DNA of 64,000 nucleotides from Verrucomicrobiota bacterium. Its GTDB lineage: Bacteria > Verrucomicrobiota > Lentisphaeria > JABSQK01 > JAJFLO01. Positions 15,563 through 30,897 of the stretch are shown piece by piece. Location of the stretch: NCBI GenBank assembly GCA_021772615.1, contig JAJFLQ010000160.1, positions 207 to 64,206 of the forward strand, given 5' to 3'. Made by a program: the position numbers and the translations under genes. The notes beneath the pieces were generated by a model. The model made no database searches and was not told the DNA's origin. It was given only the letters and a program-made list of their open reading frames with translations. Each line of letters begins with the position of its first letter. Position 1 is the stretch's first letter.

Positions 15563-15637
15563 TCCGGCATAGCTCAGCGGTAGAGTAGGTGGCTGTTAAC
15601 CACTTGGTCGTTGGTTCGAATCCAACTGCCGGAGCCA
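15563..15637 (+). tRNA. tRNA-Asn (anticodon GTT)
   Basis: It folds as a cloverleaf. The acceptor stem is TCCGGCA/TGCCGGA, the anticodon loop is cTGTTaa, the T-loop is GGTTCGAATCC, and CCA is encoded. It is followed by a T-rich tract (ttttttattttta). Confidence 0.85.
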
Positions 15638-15867: not shown

Positions 15868-16110
15868 ATGCCGACAATCCGAAATATTACCGGTCCGTAT
15901 CGATTCTACTTCTATAGTTTCGATTGAAGTGAGCCTATGCACGTTCATGTCCAGAGAGAAAGAATGGTATGCAAGTTTTGGCTGGACCCGCTAACTCTGG
16001 GGAAGAATTACGGCTTTTCTGCTAAAGAACTTAACCAAATTCGTAGATTGATTACTGATCGCATTATCGAAATACAGGATGCATGGCATGAACATTGTAA
16101 CCAGTATTGA
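15868..16110 (+). pseudogene. DUF4160 family gene interrupted by an in-frame TGA at codon 20 (15925-15927)
   Basis: The translation reads MPTIRNITGPYRFYFYSFD*SEPMHVHVQRERMVCKFWLDPLTLGKNYGFSAKELNQIRRLITDRIIEIQDAWHEHCNQY. This matches the DUF4160 pattern (...PYRFFFYSxDxDEPPHVHVERD...AKFWLDP...) in one continuous frame. The TGA sits where relatives have Arg or Gly. Confidence 0.55.
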
Positions 16111-16366
16111 ACCTCGCATCAAGAATATAAACCTGACCGAAGATGTAATTACCGCTGAGCTTGCGGACGGTCGAACGGTAAGCGTCCCATTAGCGTGGTC
16201 ATGGCGTTTATCAGATGCGACGCCGGAACAGCGAGCGAATTACGAAATGATCGGTGACGGGCATGGCGTTCATTGGCCGGACATCGACGAAGATATTAGT
16301 GCGAGTGGAATGTTGAACGGTGCACCAGCGCGACCGCCTAAGCGGGAATCGCTATTCGCCCAATAA
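16088..16366 (+). CDS. DUF2442 family protein (partner of DUF4160)
   Basis: 'DGRTVSVPLAWSWRLSDATPEQRANYEMIGDGHGVHWPDIDEDIS' matches the DUF2442 consensus. It overlaps the 3' end of the DUF4160 gene. The ORF tool starts at 16079; MNIV at 16088 fits the family's usual MN start. Confidence 0.65.
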   Translation: MNIVTSIEPRIKNINLTEDVITAELADGRTVSVPLAWSWRLSDATPEQRANYEMIGDGHGVHWPDIDEDISASGMLNGAPARPPKRESLFAQ

Positions 16367-17760: not shown

Positions 17761-18483
17761 CTATTCCAACGGTTCGTTTCTGTACCCCAATGCACGGCTG
17801 ATTGCGTAGAACAACTGCTTGTCGCTTTGACCGACGAGAAAGCGTACCTTGGTTCCGAATCGGTCTTCAATTTTTCGTTCCCGCCCCCGCAGGAAGCCTT
17901 CGATACGGTTCGACTGTTCAGGCTGCCGGTCAAGTCGGGGCAAGAGATGAACGTCGACTCGATCAGCATGGGCAATGACAATGCCCGCGGCATGAGTCAA
18001 GGCTCGGAGCACCACGTGATCATCACGGTAGTTGTCGTAGGCCGGACGAAAATCCGTTAAGGCTTGGCAGAAAATATTCCGGCACGTGATGCGTATGGCA
18101 TCAACCAACACCTTGCGGTCCATGTTAGGGCGCACATATTTTTCTTCAATTAGCATCAGCAGTCGAGATTCCTTGCGGGCCACCAGAGCTAATTCTGCAT
18201 TCACCTCGTTGAGCTGTTGGCGTAAATCCCGACGTCGGGATTTTTCTTCGACTTGCTTCTCGGCTTCGCGTGTTCGGCTGTCATTGGTATTGAATCGTTT
18301 TTTTAGTTTCGCCACGCCACGCTTCAGCTCGTCCATGGCTTTGTCGCAGATGCTGTTCGGATCGACATCGCTCAGTTGCTGTCGCAGTTGAGCCGCTTGC
18401 TGTTGCAGGTCTCGACGTTGGCTTTCCACTTTCGCCAGGGATACAGCCGGCAGGGAATCAAGGGTAAACAGGCACTGTTTCAA
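17761..18483 (-). CDS. Hypothetical protein with an N-terminal coiled-coil
   Basis: 240 aa. The N-terminal 120 aa are heptad-rich (LQQQAAQLRQQL...). The C-terminal half is unassigned. It may be part of a degraded mobile-element gene. Confidence 0.3.
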   Translation of the reverse strand: MKQCLFTLDSLPAVSLAKVESQRRDLQQQAAQLRQQLSDVDPNSICDKAMDELKRGVAKLKKRFNTNDSRTREAEKQVEEKSRRRDLRQQLNEVNAELALVARKESRLLMLIEEKYVRPNMDRKVLVDAIRITCRNIFCQALTDFRPAYDNYRDDHVVLRALTHAAGIVIAHADRVDVHLLPRLDRQPEQSNRIEGFLRGRERKIEDRFGTKVRFLVGQSDKQLFYAISRALGYRNEPLE

Positions 18484-18745: not shown

Positions 18746-19768
18746 GTGGCGCTACGACTGATGCAAATCTATATCCCTTCCGACACCGGGTCGGAAGTGA
18801 ACCAAATTCTTGACGGCTACGATATCATTGGCCGATGGCGCGACGCCGGCGATGAAGATCGCCTGGTACTGCACGTTCTTGTGCCCGCCGACAAGACCGA
18901 GCCGATCATGGATAAACTGGAAACCCGCTGCACCAAGGTCGACGGATTTCGGGTTGTCCTGTTTCCGATAGAAGCGACACTTCCGCGTCCTGATGTCAAC
19001 GTGGAAGGTGACGGACCTGAAACGGCTGTAGCGGGAAACAGACCGATTTCTGTCAATGACGCGGATCGAGTGAGCCGCGAAGAACTATACAGCGACGTTA
19101 TGGAGACACTCGGTGTTTCCCGCGTCTATATTGCCATGATCGTACTCTCGTCGATTGTTGCCGCTTTCGGCCTGATGCGAAACGACGTCGCAGTGATCAT
19201 CGGCGCCATGGTGATCGCTCCACTGCTCGGCCCGAACGTAGCCATGTCGCTGTCTGCAACACTCGGCGATGTAAAATTATTCCGCCATGCACTGCTCACC
19301 AATATTACGGGGATTGCGCTGGCATTTGTATTGTCGTTTGCCGCCGGGATTGTCTTCACCATAGATCCCACGAATCCCGCGATTGCCGCACGTACGCGTT
19401 GCGGTATTGGCGACCTGGCCCTCGCGCTCGCTGCGGGCTCTGCCGGCACATTCGCATTTACGCGCGGCATGGCCGGGGCCGTAATTGGCGTGATGGTTGC
19501 CGTGGCACTGATGCCGCCACTGGTTACGTTCGGGATGCTGCTCGGCGCTGGCCAGGTTGCTCCGGCGTTGGGCGCCTTTATACTGCTGGTAACAAACGTC
19601 GTATGCGTCAATCTCGCGGGAGTGGCGACATTCCTTGCTCAAGGCGTCCGCCCGCGGGGGTGGCGCGAGGAAGACCGTGCCCGGCGCGCCAGCCGGATAG
19701 CCATCGCTGTCTGGATGCTTCTATTGCTGGCGCTGGCAGCCAGTATTTATATCATGCCGACGGATTAA
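18746..19768 (+). CDS. DUF389/TIGR00341 family membrane protein
   Basis: The N-terminal soluble domain starts 'MALRLMQIYIPSD...'. The C-terminal polytopic hydrophobic domain shows repeated GxxxG/Ala-rich helices typical of the 'uncharacterised hydrophobic domain'. Confidence 0.6.
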   Translation: MALRLMQIYIPSDTGSEVNQILDGYDIIGRWRDAGDEDRLVLHVLVPADKTEPIMDKLETRCTKVDGFRVVLFPIEATLPRPDVNVEGDGPETAVAGNRPISVNDADRVSREELYSDVMETLGVSRVYIAMIVLSSIVAAFGLMRNDVAVIIGAMVIAPLLGPNVAMSLSATLGDVKLFRHALLTNITGIALAFVLSFAAGIVFTIDPTNPAIAARTRCGIGDLALALAAGSAGTFAFTRGMAGAVIGVMVAVALMPPLVTFGMLLGAGQVAPALGAFILLVTNVVCVNLAGVATFLAQGVRPRGWREEDRARRASRIAIAVWMLLLLALAASIYIMPTD

Positions 19769-19800
19769 CGTGAGCAGCGCGCACCACGGCGATTCGCACC

Positions 19801-22800
19801 TCATCCCCTGGGACCGCCGCAGTCCATGATCTTCTGCTGATACTTCTTCTCGCCACCAATCAATTTGTTCAACAAGGACCACCCCGCGCCGAAGGCGGCA
19901 TCATCAGGGATTTCGTATTCCGTTTCCTTGAAATCTGCCTCACCGTTTTTCAAGATGGACAATCGCTCGACTAACTCATTTAAGATTTTATTCGCGTTGT
20001 CCAATTTTCTCATACCCTTACCCTCATTGTCCTCGAATCTCTGCGGAAAAAGTGACTTGAAAAAGTCTGCGCGCGCGGTCGATCGCGAGAGCGGCGAATC
20101 CTGTCGCTTGGTTGCCTCCCGCTCTGCCTGCCTGAAGCCTTCGAGCGCCTCCTGGACTTGTTCGGCATTCATGTCGGCGGGTTCCAGCGGCTGAGTGGGT
20201 GTCTGCACAACCTCTTCGGGCGGCGGCGGCTCATCCTCATCGGGCACAAGACGGATTTGGAAGCCGGCGGCGCCGCCGGGCAGTGGTTCGTACACCACGC
20301 TATCCGTGCCCGTCGGATCGCTGAGACGAATCGGCTCATTACCGACATAACGGTAGAGATTGGCATCGCCCCCCGCGAACCGGATCGGATCCTCGGTGGT
20401 GAAACGGCCGGTCGATGGATCAAAGTATCGCGCTTTTAGATCGTACCAACCGAGGACGGCATCGTACTCCCGTGCGTTGAACAAAAACCGTGTTGTCCGC
20501 CTGGGGTCGGATTCGCTGACCAGACGTCCGAATGCATCATAACAAATATGATTGAGAATTTGACCGGATGCATCCGCCAGATCCCGCGTGGAGCCCAGGT
20601 GGTCCGACAGATGCCAGAGGACGTCTCCGCCGGTGTCAGTCGCGAGAATACTGTCCACCGTGATGCCGAAGAAGTTGCGTGTCCTCAACGTTGCCACATC
20701 GGAGAATTCGAGCCGCGGCACGCCGTTGGCGTAGATGAAGTGCGTCGTAGTCACCCCCGATTCGTCCGTGTGCGTTCGCCGGATCCGGCGGTCGAATCCG
20801 TCATAGATGAATCCCGTGCGCTGCGTGTCCGCGCCGCCGTTATGGGAATCGACAACCTCGACAAGACGATCCCTGTGGTCATAGACAAATGTCCTTGTGG
20901 TGTTGTCCGCGATAGTCGTACGACTGATCAAACGGCCGTCCGCATCGTGTGTATAGTTGAACGCCCCGTCGGTATCAAGCCGGTTTTGGACGCCGACAGC
21001 GTAGCCGCTGGCGTGCAGGTAGGAACTGGTGCGATTGCCGTTGGCGTCGTACGTATACGTTTCCTGCGGCTTTTGGGAGCTGGTGTGTACCGCGTCAACA
21101 ATCTGACCGCGTGCGTCGTACGTAAACGCGCTGACGCCGTCAATATCGCTAATTTGGGAAATTCGGTCATCAGCGGAGAAAACATAATCATAAGACGCAG
21201 TCTGCTGCCCGGCGCCGTCGGTATGGGTAATCGAAACCAGGCGTCCGAGTTGATCGCGCGCATAATCACTCTGTGCCGCGGCCGTGGCGCCGGCTGCGTC
21301 GGCAAAGCGGGCCAACGATTGGATGCGATCTTGCACGTCATAGACGAAGTCGACGCGTTTGGGAGTAAACCCGCCGGTTTCGATCGTGCCGGCGATGCGA
21401 TTCGCATCGTCGTATGTGAACGTCTGAACGGCGCCGGGTTGACCATTGATCGTTTCTGTAATCGCGGTCAGGTTGCCGGCATCATCGTATGTGTAGGCGA
21501 TCTGCACCTGGGGTGCGCCAGGGCTACCGGCATTGGTTTCGTTAATGACGCGATTGCGCGCGTCATAGGTGATCGTGACCGTAGAGTCGTTGTCTGTCAG
21601 CGCGGTGACGTTGCCGAATGTATCGTAGGAATAATGCAACACGTTGACTTCCGTCTCATTCTCGCCCAGCCACGTCTCTTTTGTCCGGCGATTCAATGTG
21701 TCGTACTCGTAGCGCGTTACACGCCCGGTACGGTCCGTCACCGAAGCGAGGTTTCCGAGTACGTTGTAGATGCGCCTGATTTCGGCGCCGCTATGATCAC
21801 GCTCGACGATCACCTTGTTGCGCGGATTGGTGGTAAACTCGGACCTGTTTCCAAGTGGATCCGTGATCGCACTCACATCGCCGTTGGCGTGATAAGTGAA
21901 CGACGTGACGGCGCCGTTCTCGTCGGTCACCATCTTAAGTTGACTGCGTGCGTCGTATTCCAGCTCAATCGATTTCGCCTCAACCGACGTCCGCGACAGG
22001 CGATTGTCATTCGCGTCGTAGCCGTAGAACGTTGTGTTGCCCGCATCATCCGTCGTCTCCACGAGCCGATCCCTCGAATCGTAGCGGAAGGACATGGTTG
22101 TACCATCGGCGGCAACGCTCGAAACGACATTGCCGCCCGCGTCATAAGCCATTTCGCGTACCGGCGCCGCCGCCGCGCCTCCGGGACTCGGGCTGGTCAC
22201 CCGCGTCACGCGATTCATCGCGTCATACTCGAATTCAGTCCGATTCCCGAGTTCATCGACCATTCCTGTTACTCTTCCGGCCGTGTCGTACTCATACAAT
22301 CGTTCTGCCTCATCCGCCGTGGCTTCGGCGAGGATCTCCTTTGTCAGGCGGCCGAACGCATCGTAGACATTGCGCGTTACCCGTCCCAGGGCGTCGGTTT
22401 CGGTTTCGAGTTGCCCTTGCCCGGTATACGTCCAACGCGTTATCACATCGTCCGTTTCAGCGCTCTCCGAATCCGGCATGCCGACTACTCGAATGTACGA
22501 CAGTGTATCGCCGTTGGCGGGATCGATTTCGAAGCGCGTGAGGTTTCCGGCTTCATCCACGATGGAGGAAAGCTGGTTGAACGCGGGGTCCCAGGTGAAT
22601 GTGCGGCCCAAAAGCGGCGCTTCATCTTCCACCGCGATCTGCGGCGCGGCAGCTTCTCCGGAAGCGGGACGTATCGCCATGGACAACGTTTCTGCGGAGT
22701 TCGCCAAGGTAGAGGCCTGCACTGCCCCCTCCGCCTTCTCCGTCCCTTCCTGCCGCAAATGATCACCAGGATGCGCGAAGCCGATAACCGAATCGCGGCC

Positions 22801-25800
22801 ATCCTGCGGATATCGCTTGAGCCGCAGGCTCTCTGGCGTGCGGCGGCTTGACGCCGCTTTAACATCCTCCGGAGGAGGACGCATCGGTCCGCTCTGTTTC
22901 AAAGCGGCGCCAAGCCGACGCACGCCAAAGCGCTTCGCGCAAGGCATGGCCGACGGACTCATGCCAAGCATCTTAAAGGCGTCCGCCGTTCCGGGCTTCG
23001 ACGCATCTGAAACCACCACGGCAGTCGCTCCAGCGCCGGTCGCCGAGACCGCGGTGAACGTCAGGTCCTGGTCGTTGTACGCCGGCTGTAGTTCGAGGCC
23101 GCTGCCGATGTCCGTGCCCGTAATCGCAGTAAAGACGCCAGCCACGGCATTCCAGGTCATCACTTCGTAACCGTCGTTTTCGTTGACAACCAGACCGTCG
23201 GCGAGCGTCAACTCCAGCGTACCATCCAGGGAGGCTGTGCCACCGACCGTGCAACGACCGATATCCTGAATGTTCGTGCCGCCGATAGTCACGCCTATCA
23301 AACCGGCAGCCGTCTGGAACATGACGCCGGTCACGTTCAGTACATGGCCCGGTCCGACGGTGACGGCGGCGCTGTTCGTCAGGCCGCTACAGTCAAGGCT
23401 GTATTCACTCAGATCGATAGCCCCACGATTGTCGATGGTGGCGCTGATCGATCGGCTGCCGCCCAAAGCGGCCAGCGAATGGATAGCGCCGTCAACCTCG
23501 TTAACGAAAGCACTGCCTGAGACGATCAATTGCGGATTGCCGTTACCACTGAATGCTGCCAGTTCAACGGAGCCGTGATTGGTCACGGGGCCACCGACCG
23601 TCAGTTGGGCGGTATCACTTCTGCCGGCCTCGATTCGAAGCACCGCCACGCTTCCGCCAACCTGACCGTTGATCATGGATCCGGTGACCGCGGCGTTGAA
23701 TGTAGCGGCGGCGCTAAACGTGTCGCCAGCCCGATAGATGAAGCTACCCAGATTAACGACGTCGCCGTCGATGGTGGAAGCGCCGAGCATCTGTAGACTT
23801 GCATTGATGGTGAGCGTATCAACCGTAAGCGCCGCCGCATTGACGGTGCTTGCGCCGTTGAGCGCCAGGTCGGCGAACTGGGCCAGACAACGATCGAAGG
23901 TGACGTTGCCGTCCCCGTCGAGCATTCCCGTTTCCGTCTGCTCGTAGAAGCCTTCTTCGATTTCCATGGCGCCGGGCGACGACGTCGTTATCACTCCGCT
24001 ATTGGTGAATCCCGGATCGGCACCGGCATGATCGAGTTTGAACAGCTCGCCCGTGATGGTGATTGTACCGCTGTTGGCGCCGACGTTGTCGACGATATTC
24101 AGCCGCAGCCCTTGCTGGCCGTCGACTGTTCCGCGGTTATCAAATTCGGCAGTGATGCCGCGTGCGCCGCCCCGCGCCGTCGGGATCGTCTGGATGATGC
24201 CGTCCGCTTCGTTCACCAGCGGACCTCCCAGGACGCTGATCCAACTGACGCCGGGCTCCAACGTACTGTGCTGCGTGAGTTCAATGCGGTCATGGTTCGT
24301 CAGTGTCCCGGAGATGCGCAGATCGGCGGTATCATTGCGCTCGGCGCTCACACGCAACACCGCATCCGAATCCCCGCCTTCTGCGCCGTTGACAAACGAC
24401 CCGTTGACCAATGCCGTAAATGTTGTGGCGAAACTGGAACCGTCACCGTCCCGGTAGGAGAACGTGCCAAGATTCACGACATCGGCATTGACAGTGCAGC
24501 TACCGCGGAGCAGCAGGCTGCCGTTGATCGTGAAGGTATCGGGCGTGCTGATGGTGGCGGTAATTGCCGTGTAGGTGCTGTCCATTGGAGCGGCAGCGGC
24601 GTAATTCGCGACGCAACGGTCGAACGTGACATTGCCGTCACCGGTAAGAACGCCATTTTGGCTGAACGCGCCTTCCTCGATCTCCATCGCGGCGGGCGCG
24701 ATGACAGTGATTGATCCCGTATTCACAAAGCCCGGATCCGTACCGGCATGATCGATCTTGAATAAACCGCCGGTAACATTGATTGTGCCGCTATTTGTGC
24801 TGACATCGTCGGTGGTCGCGACAACCAAACTCCGGCGGGCGTCGATGTGCCCGCGACTGTCAAGCCGTCCTGCAATACTGCCACTACCGCCGCCCTGGTT
24901 GGATATTGTCCGGATAACACCGTCAATTTCGTTGATCAAAGGGCCGCCGAGGACAGTGATCTTGCCGGCACCAGTTCCGGAAGGGTGAAACTGTGTAAGT
25001 TCCACAAGGCCATGATTGGTCATGGCGCCGGTAACGCGAACGTCCGCCGTGTCGTTTTCACCACCGGACGCCCGCATGACGGCGCCGGATATCGGCGACG
25101 GCTCGCCGTTGACGAAGTCGCCGTCGATCGTAAAAGCGAACGTGGTTGAGGCGCTCAGATCGTCGCCGCCGGTGAACGCAATGAGTCCGAGATTGACCAC
25201 ATCCATAGCGATCGAACCCGCGTCGTCCACGATGATGCTGGCGCGGCTGGTCAAGGTGCCGGGGCCGGAGATGTGACCGTTTTCCAGAATCCAGGAGGTG
25301 CTATACGCCACGTCTGCAGGGAATGTGCCGGTGGCATTGCGGAACCTCACGGTGCCGCCGGCGATCGTCGCACCGGTCTGCTGGATGAAGTCGCCACCGG
25401 AGACGGTAACCGAGAGGCCATCACCGATCTCGATGTTGCCGATGTTGGTAAACGACGGTCCGGGGATTCCTGAGCCGCTCTGCGACACCTGAAAGCTGCT
25501 CTGTTCGAGAATGATCGTGCCGGTATTACGATGCCCGGCGTCTTCCCTGGACAAAATGAGGAACTGTTCGACTTCGATTGTGCCGCGGTTGACCAGTTCC
25601 GCGCTGATGTAGCGTGTGCCGCCGCCGGCGCCGAAAGCGCAGAGGATGTCGCCCTGGGTTTCGTTGATGAGTTGCCCGTCCGCCTGAATATCCGGGCTGC
25701 CGCTCGCCCGATTCGATGTCAGCTCAATCATGCCGGCATTCGTCACCGTCCCGGTGATCGCCAGAACCACCCGATCATTCAGACCGGCGTTGATCTCGAT

Positions 25801-28800
25801 CCGGCCGCCGATGCAGTTGGTGATGCTGCCGTTGACATTGGCGGTTCGCGTCGAGTTCGCGCCAAATGTATCGGTATGGCGCCAGCGGATTAGCCCACTG
25901 TTGACGATGCCGCCGGCGTAGAGCGCACCCTCGCGGAAATCGAGCACGCCGGAGCTGTTGATCGTCAGGCCGCTAGCCACTGTCAGCGAACCGCTGTTCA
26001 GGACAATCGTCTGCGTGCCGACGGCGCCGCCAAGGATGACGGTGCCGACAGTAATATCGGCATTGACCTGAATCGTCCGGGTAACGCCGTCGAGACCGAG
26101 GATCACGGTGTCATTGGATCCGGGGACAATGCCCGCGCTCCAGTTTCCGGGCTCATGCCAGTTGGCGTCGACGGCGCCGGTGAACTGGTTTTCCGGGATC
26201 GCGAGGTCATCCAGTACCCGAATGAGATTGCCGCGCTCGTCGTACTCGAACAGTGTCGTCGTCCCGTCGCCGTCGGCGATGCCGGTAATTCGGTTGTTCG
26301 CGTTACGCGTTACGGTGACGCGCGGGCCCTCGGCATCTTCGGTGTCGGTATTCTGGCCGAATTCATCGAGGGCTGTCTGCTGGATATTGCCATTTGGATC
26401 ACGGTAAATCGCCATCGTTGGTCCTTCGTCGGTGACGACCGGGAGCCGGTCGAGGTTGAGTAGGTCGCCGGTTATTTCCGGTGGGTACAGGCCGCGAACG
26501 GCAGCCGGCCGCACGCTGATGGTCGAACCGTCGCTCAGCGTTGCGCCGGTGACGCGACCCGCGAAGTCATAATACGCACGCTCGTGAAACGACAAGCCCT
26601 CGTCCGCCGCCGACGGCGTATTGCCGCGCCTGGTAATCTCTCCGGTCATATGATGGTCGTCGTCGTATTGGAAAACACGCTGCGAGCCGTCCGGATCCGT
26701 GATCCGCACAAGATCGCCGGCATTGTCATAGTCGAATGCAGTGACACGGCTTGCCGGGTCGGTGATGGCCGTGACCTTGTCGTCGGTGTAAGAAAGCGTC
26801 GTTTGCAGGCCTACGGGATCGGTTATTGTCGTCAGCTGACCATTTCCATTGTATGTGAACATGGTGATGTTGTTGTTGCGGTCGGTTATAGATGCCAGCT
26901 TGTTGTCGGCGTTGAAGGTATAGATGGTCTGATCTCGCAGGGTACGCTGGAAGGTATTATCAGGCATCCGCTCGAGCACGGAGAAGTCGCCAGGCGGCGA
27001 TTGGTAGCCGTCGTCGCTGAGCTTGAAGCGCCATGATGTCTGGCCGCCGCGCAACAACAGCACCGAATCGTCCGGATTCTCAATCACGTGTTCCGCCACA
27101 TTCAGGCTCCAGCCGGCGCCGAATGGACTGCTGATCGTATTGATATGCATGATCTCACCGCGGATACGGGACGTCGTTCCGTCGAATCGGATGACCCGTT
27201 CAACGGCAAATTGGCCATCGGGTTGGCGGACTGACGCCGGACCGTCGGAGTAGCGTCCTCGTCCGGTACTGAATTGATACTGGTAAATACCGGACGGCTG
27301 ACCGCGCAGGTCGGCCTGCATAGCAATATTGACGCTGCCGGCCTGGTAGGCCCAGAAATGATAGCCTGGGCGGATCAAGATCTCGGGCAAATCGAGAGGG
27401 TGTCCCAGATACGGCTGCGGCACCCATATGCCGAAGTCCCCTCGAGTAATGCTCAGCCTTGCTGTGATAACGGCGCCGGGTGTGCCTGCCACCAAATTGC
27501 CGTAGTTGATGTGGAGGATCGGTCGGGCGTCCGCATGCAGTGAGTCGTAGGTGAGGCGCAACTGCCGCGTCTCCCCGAGTGAGAAGTAGGGCACAAGATC
27601 ATGTGTCTCGACGAGCGCGCCGGAATGCAGTATGATATCCGATGTTCCGGGGCCGCCGGCCTGGCAGCTGTTGCACGATTCGTCGCTGCCGTTGTCATCG
27701 CCGCCATCGCTGGCGTCGGCGTCCTCGGTTTGGACGGCGAAATGCCAGCTGCTGTTGCGGATACCGCCGCTGAGCGTCTCGATCACAGAGCCGTCGGCGC
27801 TGACCACCGCGGTGCCGACGTCGTCGAAGTCGCCGGTAAACGGGTTGATCGACCAGATCGTCATCTGCGTGCCGGGCGGATACCCCATCCGATTGGGCAG
27901 CGTGATCGGCGCCGGCGTGGTGAAGACCATTTCGCCGGGCTGGATCGTGACGACCAATGCCGGCAACAGGCCGTCCGGCAGCGCCGCCGGCGTCAACTTC
28001 GGGGGTACTTCAGTAACGCTCAAATTGCCTGTGTACGGTGCGCCGTTCTGTTCGGTCAGCGTGTCGGCAGCAACAAAGACCTCCACCGGCAGTTCGTCTG
28101 GATTCAACGCGACACTGACGGTAACATCCATGCCGGGGACAATGGGGCTGGCATTGGCGATGTCGAGCGCAGGGAGATAGATCGGACGGCCGATAACGTT
28201 GTTGATACCGGGCGTCACAATTCGCCCCAGCAGAAGCTGCAGCTTCTCCGCTACTGTCGGGTAGAAAGCGCCATTAATTGTACCCGGCGCCACGTGGAGC
28301 GTTTCCGCGGCAAACGGGGCGGCTGATCCGTTGTCCAGCTCAAAGCGGCCATTCACGTCAGTCTGCATGGTAACGTGGCCGAGTGAAACGACGACTCCGG
28401 AAAGCGGCTCTTGCAGCACGTTTAACACGTGCCCGGACAAACGCGTAGTCGTTGCCGGATCTGCTTCGATTGTGACGGAAATGGTCTGCCGAATTTCCTG
28501 CGCTCCGTCATCAGCCACCACATCGAAGGTGTAGGCGCCTTCATCACCGGGAAGCGGTTCAAAGATAATACGATCTTCTTGTATGCGGCCGCGTGGCAAG
28601 ACACCATCCGAAGCGATTCGAAATTGGACATTATCACCGTCGGCATCCACGAACGTTAAGGGGATCTCGAGATAGCCGCCCGTGAAAACATTAAACGGTG
28701 TAAATGCGTTGAATTGGGGAGCCGTGTTGGCCGCTCCGGCAAGGATTGTGGGACGAAGAGAGAAACCGAGTAGACCCGGGTTCGCGATTTCCACATGAAT

Positions 28801-30897: not shown

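Follow-up and report, generated by a model that had tools for sequence, protein, structure and literature searches.

In the TcB-TcC components of ABC toxins (TcdB2-TccC3, 4o9x/6h6e; YenB/YenC2), a cocoon of YD repeats that carries an RHS autoprotease core is interrupted by a non-YD domain, which in TcB is a beta-propeller. TcC cargoes act in host cells, Tc translocation favours basic cargo, and we know of no immunity gene that accompanies a TcC cargo. [quoted passage not shown] Bacterial teneurin-like proteins (TLPs) are composed of BIG and TTR domains, an extra domain, a plug, a YD shell and a small polymorphic tail (PMC13018210). Their C-terminal domains have a mass of ~15 kDa, perhaps limited by the shell cavity, and an extra gene lies directly downstream of almost all TLP genes (PMC13018210). 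Here, we describe a gene from a Verrucomicrobiota bacterium (contig JAJFLQ010000160.1, GenBank assembly GCA_021772615.1) whose product appears, by analogy with solved structures, to be built like TLPs and TcB-TcC fusions. It lies in a stretch of 64,000 nucleotides (positions 207 to 64,206 of the contig, referred to below as the window), on the minus strand at 19801..30897, and ends in a tail that is followed by no immunity gene. An earlier model-made annotation of the same letters (the original prediction) had drawn attention to this gene as encoding an RHS protein with an orphan C-terminus.

The minus-strand open reading frame (ORF) is uninterrupted over 19801..31002, and the ATG at 30897 gives a protein of 3,698 aa plus stop, in agreement with the predicted size of ~3,700 aa. 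The identical protein forms a singleton cluster in a collection of 15 billion proteins and is also encoded by an independently assembled Logan contig (SRR15505516_76395, run SRR15505516). The YD-repeat shell and the canonical RHS core that had been proposed are both present. RHS_repeat (PF05593, Pfam) matches across 14 stretches with an E-value of 6.6e-85, while YD_repeat_2x (TIGR01643, NCBIfam) is found in two blocks (1.3e-61 and 1.6e-25), at aa ~1290-1576 and aa 2767-3452; the second block (20542..22599, minus strand) carries the 1.3e-61 match. Among PDB sequences, the shell matches RhsA (7q97, the strongest full-shell match, E 6.8e-45), the bacterial TLP named BiTLP (9ifo/9pt5, E 2.4e-35 over the shell), Tse5 and teneurins.

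The shell is followed by the RHS repeat-associated core, a putative aspartyl autoprotease (aa 3453-3531, 20305..20541, minus strand), for which Rhs_assc_core (TIGR03696) reaches 75.1 bits (cutoff 32.5) over aa 3453-3530. The core ends in YRYVGNEPIRLSDPTGT, with PIRLSDPTGT at aa 3522-3531 and DPTGT at aa 3527-3531, and the PxxxxDPxG motif is present. The best PDB match of the core is BiTLP (9pt5), in which R2103, D2116 and D2140 are catalytic and L2144 is the cleavage residue (PMC13018210). In the alignment, these residues correspond to R3490 (20428-20430), D3503 (20389-20391), D3527 (20317-20319) and T3531 of the window protein, and the cleavage site is predicted to lie after T3531.

The 167 residues that follow DPTGT (aa 3532-3698, 19804..20304, minus strand) constitute the tail, which is shorter than the ~190 aa first estimated. 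The tail has a mass of 18.6 kDa and a pI of 4.6, is strongly hydrophilic, and contains no hydrophobic segment, no His and one Cys (C3693, 19816-19818), five residues before its end. Approximately 45 of the 167 residues form a Pro/Glu-rich spacer. An AlphaFold2 (AF2) model calculated without an alignment suggests that two short strands come first and that an unstructured spacer separates them from five to six helices (~120 aa), with a predicted local distance difference test score (pLDDT) of 50. Searches of Pfam, NCBIfam, PHROGs and PDB sequences gave no match to the tail, and neither did a word-indexed search of 5.8 billion clusters. Exhaustive phmmer over 1.84 billion representatives returned only the window protein itself and three further hits (P0009-P0011), which were rejected as homologues: the short matches were multiplied by the tandem repeats of the targets and had BLASTP E-values of 1e-4 to 1e-2 per segment. 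Foldseek, run on the low-confidence model, gave no meaningful match (best E 2.7). The domain was thus rightly called unrecognisable, and the structure prediction and fold search that had been suggested for it yielded no known fold. Across the tail, codon usage scores 0.23-0.39 bits/codon and matches or surpasses the mean for the gene (0.28, sd 0.11), so the tail is genuine coding sequence in the correct frame and not read-through into junk; out-of-frame or decayed sequence was rejected on the same ground. Judged by composition, the lack of His and the single Cys argue against HNH/GHH nucleases, zinc-dependent deaminases and HExxH proteases. Acidic, free of His and probably for the most part helical, the tail is unique to its lineage and lies outside the known toxin families.

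Homologues were searched for with the tail, two units of a repeat described below and aa 461-1290 as separate queries. The closest relative in a scan of species-representative genomes is a protein of 2,869 aa from a Pirellulaceae metagenome-assembled genome (MAG), L002:4241-12850 (JAWKTR010000013), which aligns collinearly with the window protein to either side of a large insert in the shell (aa 461-1576, 35% identity; aa 2767-3546, 40%). Together with two metagenomic homologues, L010:10001-21573 and L011:937-11561, it matches the window protein collinearly at 35-40% identity in the conserved module before the shell, in the two YD blocks and in the core, and this group is the actual family of the window protein. 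The conserved pre-shell module is common to only 14 proteins of the collection, with Planctomycetales as the single named source; the family is small and so far comes mainly from planctomycete-type genomes. Behind the conserved core, the tails of the window protein, L002, L010 and L011 are mutually unrelated. In L002, a 176-aa ORF overlaps the RHS stop by ATGA, as is classic for a toxin and its immunity gene; behind the Cys-rich 120-aa tail of L010, no ORF lies on the same strand. Because the tails differ and the closest relative has the ATGA-overlapping ORF, the family behaves like other polymorphic toxins, and the window locus is an exception.

An important question is whether the immunity gene is really missing from the window locus. 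Only 32 nt (19769..19800) separate the RHS stop from the stop of a convergent DUF389 membrane-protein gene (18746..19768, plus strand; PF04087, E 1.1e-35), a real gene and a neighbour outside the RHS system. Thus, as had been claimed, there is no space for an adjacent immunity gene. The original prediction had also pointed to a small ORF at the gap as a possible refutation; the minus-strand ORFs downstream of the RHS stop are just Arg-rich antisense frames of DUF389, and none is a plausible immunity ORF. An orphan RHS core, tail or immunity cassette was not found within the window. The DUF389 gene and a divergent GNAT gene upstream were considered as immunity candidates and judged unlikely, neither being associated with the L002 or the L010 homologue; DUF389 does not adjoin the RHS gene in either. 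The missing immunity gene is therefore a genuine exception, though not an unprecedented one. Of the original prediction, the RHS gene without an adjacent immunity gene stands, and each of the explanations offered for it (a toxin that spares the producer, an immunity gene at another place, an adhesin without toxicity, or rearrangement of the locus) is compatible with these results.

One such explanation is that the gene encodes a classical interbacterial polymorphic toxin with a new antibacterial tail, the immunity gene of which lies elsewhere or has in recent times disappeared or moved away from the 3' end. The unrelated tails behind the conserved core in L002, L010 and L011, the overlapping 176-aa ORF of L002 and the extra downstream gene of almost all TLP loci (PMC13018210) all point in this direction, as does a remodelled neighbourhood with a tRNA gene, a low-GC island and mobile-element debris 1-4 kb past the 3' end. 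There, a tRNA-Asn gene (15563-15637) is followed by an island of 36-46% GC (compared with ~55%) that extends to 17800, just beyond DUF389, and contains a DUF4160/DUF2442 pair (15937-16366) and small unannotatable ORFs. The island looks like the remnant of an integrated element beside the DUF389/RHS locus and shows local remodelling, yet it contains no immunity candidate. The 32-nt gap leads to an intact gene of a conserved family without any remnant of an immunity ORF, and the 64 kb hold no orphan core, tail or immunity cassette. Moreover, the tail is acidic and His-free, its low-confidence model and the Foldseek search reveal no known enzyme fold, and L010 likewise has no same-strand downstream ORF. 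In view of these data, we regard an interbacterial toxin as possible, though rather unlikely.

The region in front of the shell is compatible with secretion and with a teneurin-like organization. The N-terminus (aa 1-25, MTLRPRFIYTVLSLTLLTCLCTFSQ; 30823..30897, minus strand) resembles the Sec signal peptide that had been predicted, in that two Arg are followed by a 17-residue hydrophobic core without a lipobox (SPI-type; Kyte-Doolittle 2.1 over 12 aa, a heuristic estimate only). The next region (aa 26-460, 29518..30822, minus strand) is lineage-specific and not common to L002, L010 and L011. It contains an Asp-rich DxDxD stretch (aa 170-235) and a Big_13 domain above the Pfam cutoff (aa 363-443, E 2.4e-7). 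The thrombospondin-3 repeats proposed earlier were not recovered: Pfam TSP_3 gave no match even at E<=1, and just four DxDxD motifs are visible by eye. The Ig-like domains proved correct, since both Big_13 and Big_9 (aa 724-809) pass the Pfam thresholds.

The family-conserved module (aa 461-1576, 26170..29517, minus strand) comprises beta domains of no assigned family, Big_9, a putative TTR domain (aa 818-900), a ZU5-like sandwich (aa 901-1056), a Cys/Asp linker with a CxxC (aa 1057-1085, 27643-27729) and the putative plug with the first YD block (aa 1086-1576). The TTR domain, sandwich and plug are assigned from an AF2 model of aa 810-1300 built using homologues, with a mean pLDDT of 70 (~90 for aa 810-1060 and 50-70 for the plug). 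In Foldseek, teneurins take the first four places for this model (E 3e-6 to 3e-4, probability >=0.97) with template-modelling (TM) scores of ~0.15, low as expected for a multi-domain model, which suggests a teneurin-like pre-shell region. When the pre-shell module was compared with the PDB, both as a profile and as a single sequence, the Big_9/cadherin-like domain was the sole match, and the plug region showed no sequence match to BiTLP. The CxxC and a Ser are both family-conserved and lie just before the plug. In BiTLP, a plug Cys near the N-terminal cleavage site is disulfide-bonded to a cargo Cys (PMC13018210), and a similar tether between a plug-side Cys and C3693 of the tail is conceivable by analogy.

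Compared with TLPs, the window protein shares putative Sec-type export, N-terminal Ig-like adhesion domains, a predicted TTR domain and then a predicted extra domain before the putative plug, the YD shell, the R/D/D core, a small polymorphic cargo (~15-19 kDa) and the absence of dedicated delivery machinery nearby. However, TLPs have an NHL propeller between the plug and the shell, whereas in the window protein no such propeller is detected by Pfam and the YD repeats follow the plug directly. A four-repeat module interrupts the plug/YD region after ~490 aa, the plug does not match BiTLP in sequence, and no immunity gene follows. Because the defining NHL propeller is absent, the window protein is not a member of the TLP family as defined. 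TLPs have been reported from six phyla, with planctomycete-type bacteria, from which the window family comes, not among them.

With TcB-TcC, to which it shows weak PDB matches, the window protein has in common the YD cocoon, the same autoprotease core and a non-YD domain that interrupts the shell, at a position where its relatives have FG-GAP. In contrast, it consists of one chain that carries a putative signal peptide, its inserted module is not a propeller, its cargo is acidic, it has no SpvB or TcdB-mid match in Pfam, and the window contains neither a TcA gene nor any gene of TcA size. With T6SS Rhs effectors, the window protein shares the YD repeats, the core and a putatively encapsulated and cleaved cargo, but it is two to three times larger, has an interrupted shell and a putative signal peptide instead of nearby PAAR, VgrG and chaperone genes, and lacks an immunity gene. 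No T6SS, PAAR, VgrG or TcA genes were found within the window, where the context is one of housekeeping genes (fab genes, queA, truA and ABC transporters).

The module inserted in the shell spans aa 1577-2617 (1,040 aa; 23047..26169, minus strand). It consists of an N-cap, four tandem repeats of ~240 aa (aa 1640-1879, 1880-2119, 2120-2359 and 2360-~2530) and a sandwich-like C-terminal end. The repeats are 28-50% identical to one another and are visible in the DNA as a direct repeat spaced by 720 nt; the original prediction had counted three beta-helix-like copies. It had also placed them in an oversized N-terminal region, but they sit between the two YD blocks, inside the shell. Nothing in Pfam, NCBIfam or PDB sequences matches the module. 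With two repeat units as the query, only two homologues were found in 5.8 billion clusters, and both are standalone proteins with a signal peptide and the same repeat. These proteins (P0012 and P0013, one of them from a Zixibacteria bin) consist solely of the ~240-aa repeat, and their N-cap (ISWSNASGGNW..NW.GG.VPG) matches that of the module.

At the same insert point, L002 and L011 have FG-GAP, L010 has a repeat module plus FG-GAP, and the shell of another homologue, L007 from Opitutaceae, crosses the point with a short loop only. Since the relatives differ there in this way, this point of the shell is a hot spot at which large domains are inserted. From the collinearity of the flanking blocks, the module would lie outside the shell. 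Inserts with FG-GAP and unrelated tails of their own distinguish L002, L010 and L011; the N-terminal 460 aa and a linker that bears a repetitive extragenic palindromic (REP) element are unique to the window protein.

This linker leads from the module back to the shell (aa 2618-2766, ~150 aa; 22600..23046, minus strand) and has low coding potential, with a codon-usage score of 0.0-0.17 bits/codon compared with the gene mean given above. Residues 2618-~2745 are without an equivalent in L002, L010 and L011, and the last ~20 residues start aligning with L010c and L011b. Within the linker lies the strongest inverted repeat of the window (22828..22933, minus strand), with 33-nt arms that are 88% complementary and a 40-nt loop; its minimum free energy as RNA is -80.4 kcal/mol (z -6.4). 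The hairpin is translated in frame (aa ~2653-2690, ...RFGVRRLGAALKQSG...KAASSRRTPES...). Copies of the arm motif are present in 46 unrelated contigs from metagenomes, ~10 of which have paired arms; therefore, the hairpin is a dispersed REP-type element (REP or miniature inverted-repeat transposable element-like) that is translated in frame. In a stop-to-stop ORF test with any frame counted, 16 of the 46 copies fell inside open frames of at least 300 codons. The hairpin may be the scar of a captured gene together with its 3' untranslated region.

Such a linker raises the question of whether the 11-kb gene is a single functional unit. Misjoining at repeats of an RHS N-terminal part, a repeat adhesin and an RHS C-terminal part, by assembly or annotation, might be suspected, because the insert is bordered by junk-like sequence with a dispersed repeat element and the L010 and L011 homologues were called as three and two overlapping ORFs, respectively. 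However, the reading frame is maintained over 11,097 nt, the Logan assembly holds the identical protein, both halves are collinear with the single ORF of L002, and the repeat element occurs just once in the window. A chimera is consequently very improbable. The ORFs of L010 and L011 break at the borders of the inserted modules, and the cause may be frameshifts, errors in sequencing or a true, TcB/TcC-like split of the genes.

Another possibility is that the toxin-immunity module was lost and the tail is its decayed or neutral remnant, the protein being a surface adhesin or structural protein or a nascent pseudogene. If so, the locus documents a polymorphic toxin turned adhesin. Consistent with this, no homologue of the tail was found anywhere, the Pro/Glu-rich spacer takes up a large share of it and its model has low confidence; the Ig domains, the TTR domain and the repeat module, which elsewhere makes up whole secreted proteins, are adhesin-like decorations, and the in-frame hairpin with its junk-like linker indicates that the gene tolerates sequence resembling non-coding DNA. 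Nevertheless, the tail scores at least as well in codon usage as the gene does on average, the lack of any stop over 11 kb and the intact catalytic triad argue for purifying selection, and the amphipathic helical sequence would not be expected from random GC-rich DNA. We consider loss of function of the tail unlikely.

The reading best supported by these observations is that of an exported YD cocoon with an enclosed and cleaved acidic helical cargo, displayed Ig/TTR domains and repeat module, and a cargo that is harmless to the producer; we hold the chances for and against it to be about even. It starts from what is directly observed, namely, the ORF, its domain content, the core motif, the insertion site, the orphan tail and the absence of a downstream ORF, and takes export, encapsulation, cleavage, surface display and target from solved relatives. 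The protein would be laid out as a signal peptide, Ig-like domains, TTR domain, ZU5-like sandwich, plug, YD shell, aspartyl autoprotease core and 167-aa tail. The YD shell would close around the tail, R3490, D3503 and D3527 would cut the chain after T3531, and the freed 18.6-kDa tail would remain as enclosed cargo, a size that appears to fit the roughly 15-kDa C-terminal domains of TLPs. The Ig/TTR domains and the 1,040-aa four-repeat module would stand outside the shell, where they could serve attachment or target recognition. An immunity gene would be absent because the cargo cannot harm the producer, either as its target is eukaryotic or foreign, as for TcC cargoes, or as the tail is non-catalytic.

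Several points weigh against the harmless-cargo cocoon. The ancestral state was probably a toxin with an immunity gene, because the closest relative carries the ATGA-overlapping ORF, and loss or relocation of the immunity gene at the window locus is a live alternative; the search for it spans the 64-kb window, and a gene elsewhere in the genome is possible. The -80 kcal/mol hairpin and the junk-like linker could impair expression of the C-terminal half. Finally, we infer the activity of the tail, its export and its cleavage from solved relatives, the position of the module outside the shell from collinearity, and the fold of the tail from a model of low confidence (pLDDT 50).

A bolder version would make the protein a self-sufficient cocoon toxin, independent of TcA and T6SS, whose target is set by swappable modules in the shell loop, whose acidic effector, non-enzymatic or eukaryote-directed, needs no immunity, and in which the REP hairpin is the scar of the capture; taken as a whole, this version is improbable. 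Orphan tails are routine in polymorphic toxins, so that part of the design is known and the finding of one is, alone, of moderate weight. What is unusual is the combination of features, the cassette site in a shell loop with a non-propeller module, and the translated REP element. If the harmless-cargo cocoon is correct, teneurin/Tc-type YD cocoons exist in planctomycete-type bacteria in a form outside the recent TLP survey, and a single shell loop is a cassette site at which large surface modules can be exchanged, which would be a natural example of grafting new receptor-binding modules onto a shell. Some YD cocoons would then carry a cargo without an immunity partner, here an orphan one with a possibly non-bacterial target, and the design space of RHS delivery would be wider.

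A few further observations concern the surroundings of the window gene and its homologues. Beyond DUF389, a 240-aa coiled-coil-like ORF without a family match lies at 17761-18483 (minus strand), and upstream of the RHS gene, the divergent GNAT acetyltransferase gene occupies 31100-31612 (plus strand); neither is linked to the homologues elsewhere. The Opitutaceae homologue (L007:44-18826, MAG contig CAYGQM010000005) is an ORF of >6,260 aa with a very long uninterrupted YD shell, and the ~1,600 aa that follow its DPTGL core motif, which include cadherin-like repeats, seem too large for an enclosed ~15-kDa cargo of the TLP type. Near the L010 homologue, and convergent to it, two paralogous ORFs of ~90 aa (L010:21700-22599, minus strand) are interleaved with an IS66 fragment and share the consensus ...KLTRVD..WLIGDL..AIV.LDCDDEDAH.LC.RLEFI.E..KGSLRAW.

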